Source of the DNA: a phage | Sequence record: PV808484.1 | DNA length: 64,000 nucleotides | Strand: one strand, 5' to 3' | In this document: one piece after another, positions 57,643 through 62,876 of the stretch | Layout: every line of letters starts with the position of its first letter | Numbering within the stretch: position 1 is the first letter of the stretch | Made by a program: the position numbers and the translations under genes | The notes under the pieces: generated by a model | What the model saw: the letters and a program-made list of their open reading frames with translations, nothing else | Database searches by the model: none | What the model was told of the DNA's origin: nothing

Positions 57643-59376
57643 ATGAATATTTTTGCACCTTTTGCTACTGATTGGTATAAACCTGGTCACAAGCAGATGT
57701 ACAACCAAAATACAAAACTTATTTTCTCTAATTTAACTCCTCGTAATGATAAAAACTTTGCACACTATGCAGATCGTGAAGCACGTGGTGTCATTGTTTT
57801 AGGTATTCGTAGAGCAGTAACCGATGCTCTTGTAACTATGTGGGACGGCTTCTTTAAAATGTCTCGTAGTGCAGCAGTAAATAAATTTTATCGTATGTCT
57901 AAAAATGCATTAGGTGCTTCTGCTCCTTCTGCTGAATGTTGGGGAGAATTGCACGATTTAGGTTATCTTCCGCTGGAAGTTCGATCTCTGCCAGAAGGTG
58001 TTTTGTGTCCTATTGGTGTTCCTGTGTTTACTGTGCATAATACTTTAGAAAAATTCTTTTGGTTAACTAATTATGTGGAAACACTGTTGTCAGATGAAAC
58101 TTGGAAGACAATGACTAATGCCACAGCAGCTTTTCAGTATAAGCGTATCGCTATGGCATATGCGATGGCAACGTGTGATAATATTGATCACGTTAACTTC
58201 CAGTGTCATGACTTTAGCCTACGTGGTTTAAGTAATATCGAAGATGGTTATAAGAGTGGTATCGCTCATTTGGCATCGTTCACAGGAACAGATAATATTC
58301 TGGCTATTGAAACTGTACATGATTATTATGGTATTGATTATGATCAGTTTGTTGCAGGTTCTATTCCGGCTACAGAACATTCAGTAGCAACGACTAACAT
58401 TGGAGCTATTGTTGAAGATCTGAAGGAACATTTCCCACGTCTTAAAGATGATGTAGATTGGCTTCGTTATGTAGCAGAAAAAGAGTTTCTTCGTCGTTAT
58501 ATTGAAGAAATTGTTCCAGAAGGTTTTTGTTCATATGTAGCAGATTCTTATGATTACTGGGCTGTATTGACTAACATTCTGGTAGAGTTGAAAGATTCTA
58601 TTATGTCACGAAATGGTCGTCTTGTTATTCGTCCAGACTCAGGAGATCCGGTTAAAGTTGTTGCAGGATACAATATTGAATCTTTTGATAACTATGAAGA
58701 CCTTTTAAATAATGGTATTGCGACAGCCACTGAAGTAGTTCATTTGGCTGATGTTAATAAGTATTACAATGTTCTTCAGGATTGCAGTGTTGCTGACTGT
58801 ATTGATGAAACTTATGAAATTCCTTATTATGAAGCAGTAGGTTCTATTCAAATCCTTTGGGAAGTGTTTGGTGGTACTATCAACCGAAAAGGCTACAAGG
58901 TTCTTGATCAGCATATCGGTATGATTTATGGTGATTCTATTACTGTTGAACGAGAACACGAGATCTTACGCCGACTGAAGAAGAAAGGTTTTGCAGCTTC
59001 CAATATTGTATTTGGTGTTGGTAGTTATACTTATCAGTTCAATACACGAGATACTTTCGGTTTTGCTGTTAAAGCAACAGGTAGTATCATCGGTGAACAC
59101 GAAATTTTGGTAAGTAAGGAGCCTAAAACTGATCCTGGTAAACGCTCTGCAAAAGGCTTTATTAAGGTTGTTAAGGATACCAATGGTAATCTCTCTCTTG
59201 TAGATAATCTTTCTTTTAAAGATATCCAGGATGAAGACAATGAGTTACAAGTTATCTTCAAGAATGGTAAGGTTATTACACCACAAGTAGAAGGACGTGA
59301 TGAAACATTTACTGATATCCGCAACCGTGTTGACGTAGAGGTTCTTCGTACTATGGGAACCATCCAGGTTGACTAA
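57643..59376 (+). CDS. nadV: nicotinamide phosphoribosyltransferase (NAMPT/NadV)-like enzyme
   Basis: N-terminal FATDWYKPGHKQMY block typical of NAMPT; 577 aa with extensions. Confidence 0.85.
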   Translation: MNIFAPFATDWYKPGHKQMYNQNTKLIFSNLTPRNDKNFAHYADREARGVIVLGIRRAVTDALVTMWDGFFKMSRSAAVNKFYRMSKNALGASAPSAECWGELHDLGYLPLEVRSLPEGVLCPIGVPVFTVHNTLEKFFWLTNYVETLLSDETWKTMTNATAAFQYKRIAMAYAMATCDNIDHVNFQCHDFSLRGLSNIEDGYKSGIAHLASFTGTDNILAIETVHDYYGIDYDQFVAGSIPATEHSVATTNIGAIVEDLKEHFPRLKDDVDWLRYVAEKEFLRRYIEEIVPEGFCSYVADSYDYWAVLTNILVELKDSIMSRNGRLVIRPDSGDPVKVVAGYNIESFDNYEDLLNNGIATATEVVHLADVNKYYNVLQDCSVADCIDETYEIPYYEAVGSIQILWEVFGGTINRKGYKVLDQHIGMIYGDSITVEREHEILRRLKKKGFAASNIVFGVGSYTYQFNTRDTFGFAVKATGSIIGEHEILVSKEPKTDPGKRSAKGFIKVVKDTNGNLSLVDNLSFKDIQDEDNELQVIFKNGKVITPQVEGRDETFTDIRNRVDVEVLRTMGTIQVD

Positions 59377-60270: not shown

Positions 60271-60356
60271 GCAAGTGTGGTGGAATTGGTGATACACATT
60301 GTGCTTAAAACGCAACGCTTAAATGATTGAGGGTTCGAATCCCTCCACTTGCACCA
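60271..60356 (+). tRNA. tRNA-Leu (anticodon TAA), class II
   Basis: acceptor GCAAGTG/CACTTGC, T-arm GAGGG-TTCGAAT-CCCTC, anticodon loop CTTAAAA, long variable arm, encoded CCA. Confidence 0.7.
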
Positions 60357-60358
60357 AC

Positions 60359-60464
60359 GCCTAGTAGGGTATTTGGTAATTCCGAGGCCATCAAAGCCTG
60401 AAAAATATGTTAGACCGCTTTGTCTAACTAAATACGAAATATGGTTCGATTCCATAACTAGGCT
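60359..60464 (+). tRNA. atypical 106 nt tRNA-like element
   Basis: perfect 7 bp acceptor GCCTAGT/ACTAGGC and canonical T-arm TATGG-TTCGATT-CCATA, but about 30 nt too long; candidate anticodon loop CATCAAA. Confidence 0.3.
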
Positions 60465-60497
60465 TCAATTTAAATAGTAATTTTAGTAAAAAATATC

Positions 60498-60526
60498 TTG
60501 ACATTTACTTAGTTTTTTGTTATAGT
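60498..60526 (+). promoter_or_regulatory. promoter TTGACA-17-TATAGT driving downstream tRNAs
   Basis: read directly; ideal 17 bp spacing. Confidence 0.55.
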
Positions 60527-60537
60527 CGTTATGAAAA

Positions 60538-60619
60538 CGGGGTGTATCTCACCTGACTTCTAATCAGGCGTTAACCGAGTAATTGGAGTATGCAGGTTCG
60601 AATCCTGTCACCCCGGCCA
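60538..60619 (+). tRNA. tRNA-like element, possible tRNA-Arg (anticodon loop CTTCTAA) with irregular D region
   Basis: perfect acceptor CGGGGTG/CACCCCG, T-arm GCAGG-TTCGAAT-CCTGT, CCA; perfect stem-loop CCTGA-CTTCTAA-TCAGG; cloverleaf not resolved. Confidence 0.4.
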
Positions 60620-60682
60620 AAAAGTTTTAAAAACTACTTGACAAGCAAGATAGTTTTATGTTAGATTTAAAGTATGATAACT

Positions 60683-60772
60683 GGAAGGTAGGGCGCAGCG
60701 GTGCGCAACCAGGTTTGAACCCTGGCCCATTGTAGCGATACGGTGATGGTTCGACTCCATTATCTTCCTCCA
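60683..60772 (+). tRNA. tRNA-Ser (anticodon TGA), class II
   Basis: acceptor GGAAGGT/ATCTTCC, D-arm GCGC-AGCGGT-GCGC, anticodon arm CCAGG-TTTGAAC-CCTGG, 19 nt variable arm, T-arm GATGG-TTCGACT-CCATT, CCA. Confidence 0.8.
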
Positions 60773-60790
60773 AATTCAATGAGTGATTTT

Positions 60791-60943
60791 ATGAATTATA
60801 AAACTATTGGACAGGTTGTTACCGGAGTTAAGATTGTAAATAATAAAGTTGTTTATGAGTATTCTAATCTTCAACAATCTGAAGATGGTAAGAATATTCG
60901 TATGGTAAAAGCAGAACAAAAAGATTCCGGTTGTTTTGAATAA
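60791..60943 (+). CDS. hypothetical protein (50 aa)
   Basis: internal ATG of ORF 60743..60943; the upstream part overlaps tRNA-Ser. Confidence 0.35.
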   Translation: MNYKTIGQVVTGVKIVNNKVVYEYSNLQQSEDGKNIRMVKAEQKDSGCFE

Positions 60944-60951
60944 TTAAGAAC

Positions 60952-61037
60952 GGTAGATTGGTGAAATGGTAGCCACAACAGTTTGCTAAACTGTCGTCGG
61001 AAACGGCGTGTAGGTTCAAGTCCTACATCTACCGCCA
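60952..61037 (+). tRNA. tRNA-Ser (anticodon GCT), class II
   Basis: acceptor GGTAGAT/ATCTACC, anticodon arm ACAGT-TTGCTAA-ACTGT, variable hairpin CGTCGGAAACGGCG, T-arm GTAGG-TTCAAGT-CCTAC, CCA. Confidence 0.8.
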
Positions 61038-61172
61038 AGTTATCTTTAATGTAGCTTGTAATCTTACTTTAGCAGAGTAAATCTTCGGCAAGTGGCGGTA
61101 ACCACTTTACCGATACCCCAATACTTCATAGCTAAGTGCCGCAAACACTGGCTATTTTAAAGATAATTTTAT

Positions 61173-61247
61173 ACATCGTTAGCCAAGCGGTAAGGCACTT
61201 GACTTTTAATCAAGGGAGCGAAGGTTCGAATCCTTCACGATGTACCA
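61173..61247 (+). tRNA. tRNA-Lys (anticodon TTT)
   Basis: acceptor ACATCGT/ACGATGT, anticodon arm CTTGA-CTTTTAA-TCAAG, T-arm GAAGG-TTCGAAT-CCTTC, CCA. Confidence 0.85.
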
Positions 61248-61252
61248 AACAC

Positions 61253-61339
61253 GTAGGTATCGCATAGCGGCAATTGCTGGAGACTGTAAATCTCCTGCCC
61301 TTCGGGGCTTCGTTGGTTCGAGTCCAACTACCTGCACCA
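61253..61339 (+). tRNA. tRNA-Tyr (anticodon GTA), class II
   Basis: acceptor GTAGGTA/TACCTGC (one G-U), anticodon arm GGAGA-CTGTAAA-TCTCC, variable hairpin, T-arm GTTGG-TTCGAGT-CCAAC, CCA. Confidence 0.8.
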
Positions 61340-61346
61340 AATTAAA

Positions 61347-61431
61347 GATGGATTGGCCTAGTGGTTGGGCGACGGACTGTTAATCCGTGAACGAAAGTTC
61401 TAGCAAGGTTCAAATCCTTGATCCATCGCCA
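61347..61431 (+). tRNA. tRNA with Asn anticodon (GTT) on a class II (long variable arm) scaffold
   Basis: acceptor GATGGAT/ATCCATC, 3 bp D-stem GCC/GGC, anticodon arm ACGGA-CTGTTAA-TCCGT, 15 nt extra arm GAACGAAAGTTCTAG, T-arm CAAGG-TTCAAAT-CCTTG, G73, CCA. Confidence 0.65.
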
Positions 61432-61435
61432 AATA

Positions 61436-61504
61436 GTGCTTGTAGAGTTAATAGAAACCTCTAGAATTTTCTAGAATTGTAGGTATCAAATCCTACCAAG
61501 CAAA
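61436..61504 (+). tRNA. tRNA-like element, no encoded CCA, irregular anticodon region
   Basis: 6 bp acceptor pairing, T-arm GTAGG...CCTAC with 8 nt loop; region contains TCTAGA-ATTTTC-TAGA palindrome. Confidence 0.25.
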
Positions 61505-61510
61505 TATTTT

Positions 61511-61585
61511 GCTCCTATCGTATAACGGCTATTACGGTTGCCTTGTAAGCAACTTATCAGGGTTCGAGTCCTTGTGGGAGCACCA
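61511..61585 (+). tRNA. tRNA-Thr (anticodon TGT)
   Basis: acceptor GCTCCTA/TGGGAGC (one G-U), anticodon arm GTTGC-CTTGTAA-GCAAC, T-arm CAGGG-TTCGAGT-CCTTG, CCA. Confidence 0.8.
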
Positions 61586-61607
61586 ATTTAACTCTAAAGG
61601 AGTGTAT

Positions 61608-61931
61608 GTGACAGAAAAAGAGTTAGAGAAATATTTTAATATCAATGTTTTCGATGGTTTTGATGATATTGAAGATGTTGAAAGATACTATGAAGTAGAG
61701 TTAGATAAGGATAACATTGTAATTCTTTCTGCCACTTATGATTGTGCATATTATGAAGGCGAATCTCACGTTTATTTCTATGATATGAAAACATCTTTGT
61801 TTTATGAAGTACACGCATATCATTGTTCTTGTTATGGCTTAGAAGGTCAGTGGGAACCTGAAGAAATAGGTGATTTGAGCTTTACGGTTGCATATCTAAA
61901 CAGACGTGGTGCATCTACTATTTTAAAATAA
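61608..61931 (+). CDS. hypothetical protein
   Basis: GTG start 5 nt after AAAGGAG RBS; the ORF-track N-terminus overlaps tRNA-Thr. Confidence 0.45.
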   Translation: MTEKELEKYFNINVFDGFDDIEDVERYYEVELDKDNIVILSATYDCAYYEGESHVYFYDMKTSLFYEVHAYHCSCYGLEGQWEPEEIGDLSFTVAYLNRRGASTILK

Positions 61932-61945
61932 ATATTAAAAGCCTC

Positions 61946-61975
61946 TTGACAAAGGGGCTAATAATATGTTAGAGT
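61946..61975 (+). promoter_or_regulatory. TTGACA-type promoter upstream of tRNA-Gly
   Basis: TTGACA 61946-61951. Confidence 0.45.
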
Positions 61976-61986
61976 AATATTGTTAA

Positions 61987-62061
61987 GCGGGTATAGTGTT
62001 AATGGTAGCATATGAGGTTTCCACCCTCCAGGTGCAGGTTCAAGTCCTGTTACTCGCTCCA
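61987..62061 (+). tRNA. tRNA-Gly (anticodon TCC)
   Basis: acceptor GCGGGTA/TACTCGC, anticodon loop TTTCCAC, T-arm GCAGG-TTCAAGT-CCTGT, CCA. Confidence 0.7.
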
Positions 62062-62160
62062 AGATTATTTAAATGGAATCGCTAGAGAAAATTTCTCTTT
62101 TCGCTCATGGTTTTCTCCTTCAAACTCTAGCGGTTCTTTTTAAGTGATTTTTAGTTTTAT

Positions 62161-62235
62161 TGGAGATTAGCCTAGTGGGAAGGCAACGGCCTTTGAAGTC
62201 GTGATGACTAGGTTCGATTCCTAGATCTCCAGCCA
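62161..62235 (+). tRNA. tRNA-Gln (anticodon TTG)
   Basis: U1-A72 acceptor TGGAGAT/ATCTCCA, anticodon arm ACGGC-CTTTGAA-GTCGT, T-arm CTAGG-TTCGATT-CCTAG, CCA. Confidence 0.85.
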
Positions 62236-62242
62236 ATATTTA

Positions 62243-62318
62243 CAGTGCGTAGCGCAGTTGGTAGCGTGGGAGCTTTGGATGCTTCGGGTCGCAGGTTCGA
62301 GTCCTGCCGCACTGACCA
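62243..62318 (+). tRNA. tRNA-Pro (anticodon TGG)
   Basis: acceptor CAGTGCG/CGCACTG, D-arm GCGC-AGTTGGTA-GCGT, anticodon arm GGAGC-TTTGGAT-GCTTC, T-arm GCAGG-TTCGAGT-CCTGC, CCA. Confidence 0.85.
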
Positions 62319-62323
62319 AATTT

Positions 62324-62398
62324 GCAGAGATAGCTGAGACGGATTAGTGCTACCCTGAAAAGGTAGAAAGGATGGATCGTTACCATCTCTCTGCACCA
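62324..62398 (+). tRNA. tRNA-Phe (anticodon GAA)
   Basis: acceptor GCAGAGA/TCTCTGC, anticodon arm CTACC-CTGAAAA-GGTAG, T-arm GATGG-ATCGTTA-CCATC, CCA. Confidence 0.8.
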
Positions 62399-62475
62399 AA
62401 TAACACCATCCAAGGAGTAGACTTGGTTAACTGTCAATAGCACATTGAGGCTTCTTACAGTGGTGCACTTATTAT

Positions 62476-62560
62476 GGCTAAGTGGTGGAATGGTATACAC
62501 GATACGCTTAGAACGTATTGCCCCAAGGGATTGTGAGTTCGAGTCTCACCTTAGCTACCA
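62476..62560 (+). tRNA. tRNA-Leu (anticodon TAG), class II
   Basis: acceptor GGCTAAG/CTTAGCT, anticodon arm ATACG-CTTAGAA-CGTAT, long variable arm, T-arm GTGAG-TTCGAGT-CTCAC, CCA. Confidence 0.8.
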
Positions 62561-62575
62561 AATTACTACAGATTG

Positions 62576-62654
62576 CGCGGGATAGAGGAGTCTGGTCGTC
62601 CTCGCCAGTTTCATATGCTGGAGATCATCGGTTCGAATCCGATTCCCGCCTCCA
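62576..62654 (+). tRNA. tRNA-Met (anticodon CAT; elongator, initiator or Ile2 not distinguishable)
   Basis: acceptor with one C-C mismatch at pair 1-72, D-arm GAGG...CCTC, anticodon arm CCAGT-TTCATAT-GCTGG, T-arm ATCGG-TTCGAAT-CCGAT, CCA. Confidence 0.7.
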
Positions 62655-62698
62655 ATAAATACTTCCCTTCTGGTGTAATGATTAAATTACATTGACAC

Positions 62699-62795
62699 TT
62701 CAAGGAACTCATAGCCGGGTAGATTTAAAAGAGTATGGTACTCAATATGGCTCCAAACCATAGATCAGGGGGTTCGATTCCTCACCTTGCTGCCA
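62699..62795 (+). tRNA. tRNA-like element with Trp anticodon loop (CTCCAAA) but unpaired or extended 5' region
   Basis: perfect anticodon arm TATGG-CTCCAAA-CCATA, T-arm GGGGG-TTCGATT-CCTCA, CCA; 5' acceptor partner only 5 bp and about 22 nt too far upstream. Confidence 0.35.
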
Positions 62796-62800
62796 ATTAT

Positions 62801-62876
62801 TGTGGTATCGTACAGATGGTTAGTACACTCGACCGATAATCGAGAAACAACGGTTCGACTCCGTTTACCACGACCA
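62801..62876 (+). tRNA. tRNA-Ile (anticodon GAT)
   Basis: acceptor TGTGGTA/TACCACG, D-arm GTAC...GTAC, anticodon arm CTCGA-CCGATAA-TCGAG, T-arm AACGG-TTCGACT-CCGTT, CCA. Confidence 0.85.

Follow-up and report, generated by a model that had tools for sequence, protein, structure and literature searches.

A phage tRNA-Asn with a conserved class II-like variable arm, a candidate shield against tRNA-targeting defence nucleases

Introduction

Long variable arms are, in textbook terms, reserved for the tRNAs of leucine, serine, selenocysteine and, in bacteria, tyrosine. Here we analyse a stretch of phage DNA of 64,000 nucleotides (record PV808484.1; the whole stretch is referred to as the window) in which a tRNA gene at positions 61347-61431 combines the asparagine anticodon GUU with such an arm. 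The window is the final 64 kb of Escherichia phage EmilieFrey (MZ501063), which is BASEL phage Bas61, a phi92-like Justusliebigvirus of the Stephanstirmvirinae. Across 61150-61650 the two records are 100% identical, and the gene is annotated in MZ501063 as tRNA-Asn bas61_0265.

The tRNA-Asn(GUU) of the host, encoded in E. coli by asnT/U/V/W, has the same anticodon, the same anticodon loop (CUGUUAA), G73 and the CCA end. It belongs to class I: its variable loop is 5 nt long (AUGUC), its D stem has 4 bp, and its first acceptor pair is U1-A72. In the phage tRNA the variable region is a hairpin arm of 15 nt, the D stem has three pairs with a possible fourth, and the first acceptor pair is G1-C72. 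Asparagine identity in E. coli resides in G34-U35-U36 and G73 and can be transplanted into tRNA-Lys (PMC9976931). Serine identity depends on the long arm, with help from G73 and the acceptor stem; the pairs G1-C72 and G2-C71 never vary among E. coli tRNA-Ser, and tyrosine and leucine identity require A73 (PMC9976931). Seryl-tRNA synthetase (SerRS) ignores the anticodon, and anticodon variants of tRNA-Ser mistranslate (PMC9976931). Such anticodon-switched tRNA-Ser and the allo-tRNAs also place a non-Ser anticodon on a long-arm scaffold with G73 (PMC7609411, PMC9976931). These mistranslating tRNAs keep Ser acceptor identity or an 8/4 or 9/3 acceptor/T geometry, whereas the window tRNA has 7/5 geometry, lacks G2-C71 and carries the full set of Asn determinants.

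Phage tRNAs have been described as countermeasures against two tRNA-cleaving enzymes. AriB, the nuclease of PARIS, cuts E. coli tRNA-Asn(GUU) between positions 40 and 41; cells are protected from PARIS toxicity by tRNA variants of T5 (PMC12409363). The T5 tRNAs that neutralise PARIS, Lys(UUU), Thr(UGU) and Asn(GUU), are phage copies of isoacceptors that AriB cleaves (PMC12409363), and so is the window tRNA-Asn. A 2026 preprint reports that the P2 OLD TOPRIM tRNase is strongly counteracted by the Thr(UGU) tRNAs of T4, Bas32, Bas33 and HK446, and only partly by the class I Thr tRNA of T5; host tRNA is still degraded while the phage Thr tRNA remains stable (bioRxiv 10.64898/2026.07.10.737580). 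The variable arm is mentioned in neither the PARIS nor the OLD paper.

Results

The extra bases form a hairpin in the variable region

ARAGORN called a tRNA-Asn (GTT) of 85 nt at 61347..61431 on the plus strand. The Rfam model RF00005 matched these positions over its full length with 56.5 bits (E 1e-10; gathering threshold 29 bits); every stem was canonical, and the 12 bases aligned as insertions fell in the variable region. RNAfold returned a five-arm cloverleaf as both the minimum-energy and the centroid structure (-29.5 kcal/mol, z = -2.57). All three programs agree with a first-pass annotation, made from the sequence alone, that had placed a tRNA with anticodon GUU at these positions. The acceptor/T geometry is the normal 7/5, and the 7-bp acceptor stem, G73-CCA, G18G19, the T loop, U33 and A37 are all intact. 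The parts of the gene are as follows.

61347-61431, plus strand: complete tRNA gene with anticodon GUU and encoded CCA end (ARAGORN, Rfam RF00005, RNAfold, MZ501063 annotation)
61347-61353, plus strand: 5' strand of the acceptor stem, GAUGGAU, with G1-C72, A2-U71 and U3-A70 (ARAGORN; five of the seven acceptor pairs covary in the homologue alignment A1 described below)
Between acceptor stem and D arm, plus strand: U8 and G9 (sequence, ARAGORN)
61356-61370, plus strand: D arm, GCC / UAGUGGUUG / GGC (Rfam, ARAGORN, homologue alignment)
61372-61388, plus strand: anticodon stem-loop, ACGGA-CUGUUAA-UCCGU, with the anticodon GUU at 61379-61381 (comparison with asnT)
61389-61403, plus strand: long variable arm, 15 nt (Rfam, ARAGORN, covariation)
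61389-61392 with 61397-61400, plus strand: 4-bp stem of the arm, GAAC/GUUC
61393-61396, plus strand: GAAA tetraloop of the arm
61401-61403, plus strand: 3' spacer of the arm, UAG, 3 nt, whose final base is position 48
61404-61420, plus strand: T arm, CAAGG-UUCAAAU-CCUUG (Rfam, ARAGORN, homologue alignment)
61421-61427, plus strand: 3' strand of the acceptor stem, AUCCAUC (ARAGORN, homologue alignment)
61428-61431, plus strand: discriminator G73 at 61428 and encoded CCA at 61429-61431 (sequence)

In the first-pass annotation the extra arm, of 15 nt, had been folded by hand into a GAAC-GAAA-GTTC hairpin. This fold stands, with the arm starting at 61389 and UAG following the hairpin. The tRNA is well formed, and its 15-nt variable region folds as a conserved hairpin of four pairs capped by GAAA, which gives the molecule a class II-like shape. 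An intron or a mis-joined neighbour was rejected as the source of the extra bases, since Rfam, ARAGORN and RNAfold all set them in the variable-region hairpin, the covariance fold included. The D stem of 3 bp that had also been proposed was right as to its three Watson-Crick pairs, but a fourth pair, U13.G22, is possible, and Rfam aligns 4 bp; C11-G24 and G18G19 are present. The resemblance of the anticodon arm to that of enterobacterial tRNA-Asn was borne out by comparison with E. coli K-12 asnT (GCGGA-CTGTTAA-TCCGT), which shares 16 of its 17 positions. Beyond the anticodon arm, no sequence similarity between the phage and the host tRNA-Asn was recognisable.

The arm is conserved in three phage families

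Homologues of 82-86 nt occur in other phi92-like phages, where they are 100% identical, and in Klebsiella phage KP13-26 and Phapecoctavirus. Further ones are found in the Vequintavirinae phage PVP-SE1 and in the T5-like Demerecviridae Lindwurm, Proteus phage Stubb and Providencia phage PSTCR5. Comparison with these relatives, which had been suggested as a check, revealed that the long arm is kept with compensatory changes. Alignment A1 comprises seven homologues from three phage families (Stephanstirmvirinae, Vequintavirinae and Demerecviridae). Its arm stems read GAAC/GTTC, GAGA/TCTC, GAGT/ACTC, GTTC/GAAC, GTC/GAC and GTTC/GGAC, and the loop that they enclose is GAAA throughout. Every one of the 24 pairs is paired in 100% of cells, and three of the four arm pairs have changed on both sides. 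The covariation score was reached by none of 500 shuffles, and structures shifted by 1-3 columns collapsed. The arm is more than a chance fold.

Throughout the wider family of long-arm tRNA-Asn, the arm consists of a 5' spacer of 0-1 nt, a stem of 3-4 bp, a loop that is mostly GAAA and a 3' spacer of 3-4 nt. The 15-48 combination is canonical in most members (G-C, or A-U in some), so that the last nucleotide of the arm acts like the Levitt-pair partner in a tRNA of normal fold; the window tRNA has G15-G48. A covariance model built from the seven homologues (R1) matched all tRNAs in a search and was thus unable to delimit the family.

Long-arm tRNA-Asn is associated with viruses

IMG/VR and a set of species genomes were scanned with a fixed anticodon-arm sequence. 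IMG/VR yielded at least 80 loci in which the Asn anticodon arm is followed by a T arm at the long-arm distance. ARAGORN called 88 long (79-91 nt) tRNA(GUU) genes in these loci, 56 of them distinct, on contigs of 6 kb to 476 kb. The 185,579 bacterial and archaeal species genomes (one genome per species, with no class I control beside this count) gave seven pattern matches; five were called as long tRNA-Asn, three of these five within dense phage-like tRNA arrays. No match to the window tRNA was found by blastn in 5,426 E. coli genomes. In a curated phage collection, by comparison, 155 records match the window tRNA, and a long-arm allele of 83 nt is present in 291 T5-like records. Long-arm tRNA-Asn is virus-associated.

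Hundreds of GenBank records already list the gene as tRNA-Asn. The BASEL genomes were annotated with tRNAscan-SE, a program that takes the name of a tRNA from its anticodon. Annotation pipelines rely on the anticodon alone for these genes, which leaves the oddity invisible in databases. We found no description of a class II-like long-arm phage tRNA-Asn, or of the wider viral family, in the full-text literature, a scope outside which subscription-only older T5 papers fall.

The reverse oddity is seen in T5-like phages, whose tRNA-Leu(UAA) and tRNA-Leu(UAG), of 77 nt, have a variable loop of 5 nt and are class I-shaped (L006:1198-1274 and L013; L numbers denote fetched loci).

The long-arm tRNA(GUU) very probably decodes asparagine

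Both Asn determinants are present in the window tRNA (GTT at 61379-61381, G at 61428), which lacks the class I architecture, with a variable loop of 4-5 nt, of all described bacterial tRNA-Asn. Its tetraloop-capped long arm is shared with class II tRNAs (Ser, especially Ser(GCU), Tyr and Leu), and GAAA is the loop in many tRNA-Ser. With tRNA-Ser it further shares G73, G1-C72, C11-G24, a short D stem and the U8-G9-GCC...GGC D arm, and tRNA-Ser are the best matches to its body outside tRNA-Asn. These features favour a Ser-accepting or dual Ser/Asn tRNA, in which SerRS would read the long arm and G73 and serine would be placed at Asn codons.

To compare identity elements, we parsed the tRNAs of all fetched loci. 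Phage tRNA-Ser have G2-C71 in 32 of 33 cases and A3-U70 in 26 of 33; their arm stems are 4-6 bp long and are separated from the T stem by 1-2 unpaired nt. The window tRNA has A2-U71 and U-A at position 3-70, and its arm, a 4-bp stem with a 3-nt spacer, does not have Ser-type geometry; the stem is shorter and the 3' spacer longer than in tRNA-Ser, and the same is true of the family (3-4 bp and 3-4 nt). Nor are the acceptor stems of the family Ser-like. Long-arm tRNA(GUU) have G73 in 37 of 41 cases and U1-A72, a hallmark of bacterial tRNA-Asn, in 23 of 41, while G2-C71 occurs in only 17 of 41 and no 2-71 or 3-70 pair is conserved. A73 was found in all 26 phage tRNA-Tyr and all 31 long-arm tRNA-Leu, whereas the window tRNA has G73.

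As stand-ins for isotype-specific models, we built covariance models from 38 phage tRNA-Ser (R2) and 30 phage tRNA-Tyr (R3). The Ser model gave the window tRNA-Asn 52.1 bits, no better than Leu (56.7) or Tyr (54.9) tRNAs and far from the phage's own Ser(GCU) at 73.2. The Tyr model gave it 46.2 bits compared to 79.5 for the phage's own tRNA-Tyr. These scores, 20-33 bits below those of true members, indicate a generic long-arm tRNA by shape, not a normal tRNA of either the Ser or the Tyr type.

As had been noted, the anticodon loop of the adjacent tRNA-Tyr (61253-61339), CTGTAAA, is a near match. A recent duplicate of this tRNA-Tyr with an A36U change was rejected as the origin of the gene: the bodies are dissimilar, the Tyr model score is 46 bits against 79.5, and neither feature of a tRNA-Tyr, anticodon GUA or A73, is present in the window tRNA (GUU, G73). 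A copy of the phage's own tRNA-Ser(GCU) point-mutated at C35U was rejected too, as body similarity is low and the anticodon stem differs.

Codon usage, another check that had been suggested, was counted in the open reading frames of the window. Asn makes up 4.95% of codons, mostly AAT (31.6 per thousand), and the AAY codons of the phage gene for nicotinamide phosphoribosyltransferase (NAMPT) align with conserved Asn of solved homologues. No second Asn tRNA was found in the 14-gene tRNA cluster of the window or at the start of the genome record. Serine insertion by the sole Asn tRNA would harm the phage proteome, which argues that the tRNA decodes asparagine. The first-pass proposal of a Ser-charged chimera misreading Asn codons is therefore opposed by A2-U71, the non-Ser arm geometry, the low Ser-model score and the use of AAY at conserved Asn positions, and we regard serine acceptance as very improbable. 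Its other suggestion, a true tRNA-Asn with an unusual insertion, is favoured by the determinants, the covariance scores and the codon data. Collectively, these sequence features make it very probable that the long-arm tRNA(GUU) decodes asparagine.

A proposed role of the arm in defence evasion

We propose that the phage tRNA(GUU), which is predicted to be functional and expressed, reads AAC and AAU as asparagine. The host asparaginyl-tRNA synthetase (AsnRS) would charge it through G34-U35-U36 and G73, given that the Ser acceptor-stem determinant, the Ser arm geometry and the A73 of Tyr and Leu are all absent. The tRNA would supplement or replace host tRNA-Asn for an AT-rich genome with 5% Asn codons. 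Less certainly, the arm may be kept by selection for altering the shape of the tRNA core beside the 3' strand of the anticodon stem. With the core so altered, tRNA-targeting defence nucleases might be unable to dock, the host-like anticodon stem-loop notwithstanding; the TOPRIM enzymes AriB of PARIS and OLD of P2 are the candidates. This explanation as a whole, an Asn tRNA whose arm is a shield against defence, is the one we favour, with middling confidence. Assigning the arm itself to defence evasion is plausible and somewhat tentative.

The AriB site, U36AAUC|C41, is unchanged in the window tRNA. Positions 36-43 (UAAUCCGU) are identical to those of asnT, with no change at the cleavage site. 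The first difference from asnT 3' of the cut is the arm itself, which begins at position 44, three nucleotides downstream.

T5 proper has another form of the gene. Its tRNA-Asn is a 78-nt class I tRNA whose anticodon stem is mutated and mismatched (GCAUC/GUUGA), which is how it escapes, and this allele is present in 134 phage records. The window tRNA-Asn, by contrast, keeps a host-like stem and carries the extra arm. In the T5-like genomes inspected, the long-arm 83-nt allele occupies the same slot between the Cys and Asp tRNAs as the T5 gene, which lies in the order Cys-Asn-rna3-Asp; the pairing of Asn with rna3 is common to T5 and the window. The class I allele with a mutated stem and the long-arm allele with a host-like stem look like two alternative solutions for escape, judged from their sequences. 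Because T5 has the class I allele, the amber-suppression notes in the T5 GenBank record are not applicable to the long-arm form.

The same design recurs in a second isoacceptor. A long-arm Thr(UGU) tRNA of 87 nt is present in T5-like phages (92 phage records; examples are Bas33, L100:6001-6087, L013:4406-4492 and Salmonella phage SP01). Its arm, A + GGA-GUAA-UCC + CGUU with a 4-nt 3' spacer, and its host-like anticodon arm follow the Asn plan. It is absent from the window, where the Thr tRNA, as in T5, is class I and 75 nt long.

Two BASEL phages with published PARIS phenotypes allow a comparison. Bas33 (HildyBeyeler) has an intact 86-nt long-arm tRNA-Asn and the long-arm tRNA-Thr(UGU), with the AriB site unchanged in both. 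We found no tRNA-Lys(UUU) in its 12-kb tRNA region, as is also stated in PMC12409363, and Bas33 escapes PARIS when T5 tRNA-Lys alone is added (PMC12409363). Bas34 (SelmaRatti), in contrast, needs tRNA-Lys, tRNA-Thr and tRNA-Asn 'despite' its own tRNA-Asn (PMC12409363). The gene in question, bas34_0089 (MZ501103 72597-72680; L103:10598-10681), is a deletion fusion in which a long-arm tRNA-Asn supplies the 5' two-thirds and a tRNA-Met-like gene the 3' end, joined inside the shared T-arm motif GGTTCGA; the acceptor strands cannot pair, and ARAGORN makes no call. The broken gene probably explains why Bas34 needs the T5 tRNA-Asn. Bas33 is also among the phages whose Thr(UGU) tRNA counters OLD, and that tRNA is the long-arm one. 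Together with the OLD data, the two phages suggest that long-arm versions of class I isoacceptors may work in translation and survive TOPRIM tRNases.

Several points weigh against the favoured explanation. AsnRS belongs to the class II synthetases, which reach their tRNA on its variable-loop side, and it may or may not tolerate the arm. The T5-like long-arm alleles carry G1-C72, G2-C71, C11-G24 and G73, so some recognition by SerRS is possible there. The IMG/VR scan fixed the anticodon stem-loop, and its conservation across the at least 80 loci was thus imposed by the search. The comparison of Bas33 with Bas34 supports a shield only indirectly. The T5 tRNA-Asn used against PARIS was considered as an example of the long-arm type and rejected, T5 having the 78-nt class I allele. 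Among Thr(UGU) alleles, a host-like AriB site is found in 2 of 6 long-arm and about 7 of 23 short-arm forms, and a link between the long arm and a host-like site was rejected for want of clear enrichment. Long variable arms of 9-26 nt occur sporadically in many class I isotypes of viral tRNA arrays and are not confined to nuclease targets, so that a restriction of long arms to the AriB targets Lys, Thr and Asn was likewise rejected. Long forms make up 6 of 27 Cys, 4 of 30 Glu, 4 of 18 Trp and 4 of 58 Met tRNAs, with lengths of 88-90 nt for Lys(UUU), 86-89 nt for Glu(UUC), 82-89 nt for Cys and 83-84 nt for Trp (examples of long-arm class I isotypes at L090:1693-1780, L092:4198-4287 and L003:3805-3893). 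Sporadic cases were also seen in Met, Ile, Asp, His, Gln, Pro, Val and Gly tRNAs. Finally, Asn is a secondary target of AriB, and T4 and T7 escape PARIS without an Asn tRNA (PMC12409363).

Alternative explanations

The best-surviving alternative is a normal Asn-decoding tRNA whose arm, inherited from a class II-like scaffold or left behind by a hairpin insertion, is tolerated and has no defence role. The arm would then be kept for the pairing needed to fold, perhaps with a generic benefit for stability or processing. The sporadic long arms of Cys, Glu, Trp, Met and other tRNAs in viral arrays and the loss of the arm from T5-like tRNA-Leu both agree with this, and suggest that the variable region is plastic in phage tRNAs. 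So do the missing tie between arm length and cleavage-site sequence in Thr(UGU) and the weak resemblance of the tRNA body to phage tRNA-Ser. A merely tolerated arm fits less well with a design that is constant over large evolutionary distances and nearly absent from cellular genomes, with the two same-slot alleles of T5-like phages, each of which differs from the host tRNA close to the AriB site, and with the contrast between Bas33 and Bas34. We consider an arm without a defence role rather unlikely.

The tRNA might instead be a decoy or competitive inhibitor of host tRNases or of tRNA-binding defence proteins, or a regulatory tRNA-like RNA. The authors of the PARIS study consider that some viral tRNAs, if overexpressed, might inhibit AriB competitively (PMC12409363). 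The AriB recognition sequence is intact in the anticodon stem-loop, and the non-canonical rna3-like RNA directly downstream indicates that the cluster does hold RNAs that are not adaptors. All elements needed for translation are, however, intact and conserved, and the phage, whose genes use Asn codons heavily, encodes no other Asn tRNA. The degradation of host tRNA alongside stable phage Thr tRNA in the OLD study also argues for supplementation rather than inhibition. A decoy function is accordingly improbable.

Lastly, SerRS or another arm-reading enzyme may charge part of the pool, a dual or switched identity to which we assign a very slim chance on the identity evidence above; it would explain why more than 10 viral contigs hold both a class I (72-76 nt) and a long-arm (83-90 nt) tRNA(GUU) (L025/L057, L027, L029, L032, L040, the L044 group, L046, L011, L086, L068 and L092), a coexistence which suggests that the two forms are not redundant. 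Were it true, it would mean deliberate Asn-to-Ser ambiguity during infection, or a second, distinct GUU tRNA.

The tRNA cluster and its surroundings

The tRNA-Asn gene belongs to a cluster of 14 tRNA genes on one strand (60271-62876) and starts 7 nt past the tRNA-Tyr gene. One upstream element completes the feature list.

60638-60667, plus strand: putative sigma-70-like promoter, the nearest upstream, TTGACA, 18 nt, TG-TAGATT (consensus scan only)

This match could tentatively drive the Ser-Ser-Lys-Tyr-Asn-Thr run of tRNAs.

Directly 3' of the tRNA-Asn lies a tRNA-like RNA (61434-61506, plus strand) that ARAGORN does not call. It is homologous to rna3 of phage T5 (T5s07, 'putative tRNA-like RNA'), which itself directly follows the T5 tRNA-Asn. 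Phapecoctavirus and T5-like phages share with it the conserved blocks TGTAGAGTTAAG..AAACC and ATTG..GGTATCGAATCC. It is predicted to fold into an acceptor-like stem of 6 bp, a hairpin formed by the palindrome TCTAGA and a T-arm-like hairpin (z -2.98), and the Tyr-derived tRNA model gave this RNA 20.8 bits.

Three further sites in the cluster depart from standard tRNAs. The segment 60538-60616 (plus strand) scores 38.6 bits with the Rfam tRNA model, above the gathering score, and 40.9 bits with the Ser model; it has neither an ARAGORN call nor a GenBank annotation and may be a degenerate or unusual tRNA. Between tRNA-Met and tRNA-Ile, 62718-62794 (plus strand) is a weak tRNA-Sec-like or tRNA-like match (RF01852 22.4 bits, Ser model 18.6 bits) and may be another tRNA-like remnant. 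The tRNA-Ser(UGA) at 60683-60772 (plus strand) is atypical, in that its discriminator is U73 and its acceptor stem is followed by a spacer of 3 nt. Among Rfam families it fits tRNA-Sec best, with 35.3 bits, short of the threshold for that family, and the phage-Ser model gives it only 51.5 bits.

Just upstream of the cluster, the NAMPT gene (57643-59376, plus strand; E 1e-118 to solved NAMPT structures) adjoins a putative phosphoribosyl pyrophosphate synthetase, forming an NAD-salvage module. Four unannotated records of ~146 kb named 'Campylobacter phage A150/A145/C3/A110a' (MG065639, MG065645, MG065656 and MG065689) are 96% identical to the phi92-like tRNA region and are probably mislabelled or coliphage contamination.

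Discussion

Well over 400 sequenced genomes of enterobacterial phages and many uncultured viral contigs encode a conserved long-arm tRNA-Asn that almost no cellular genome has. Long-arm versions of Thr, Lys, Cys and Glu tRNAs occur beside it. Judging from the sequences, AsnRS, and probably threonyl-tRNA synthetase, apparently tolerate a class II-shaped substrate, which bears on tRNA identity and on the engineering of orthogonal tRNAs. If the arm is a shield, it would add a new way of evading immunity, based on shape, to the known point mutations of the anticodon arm. It would also help to explain the published differences between phages in sensitivity to PARIS and OLD, and would offer a simple design rule for nuclease-resistant tRNAs.

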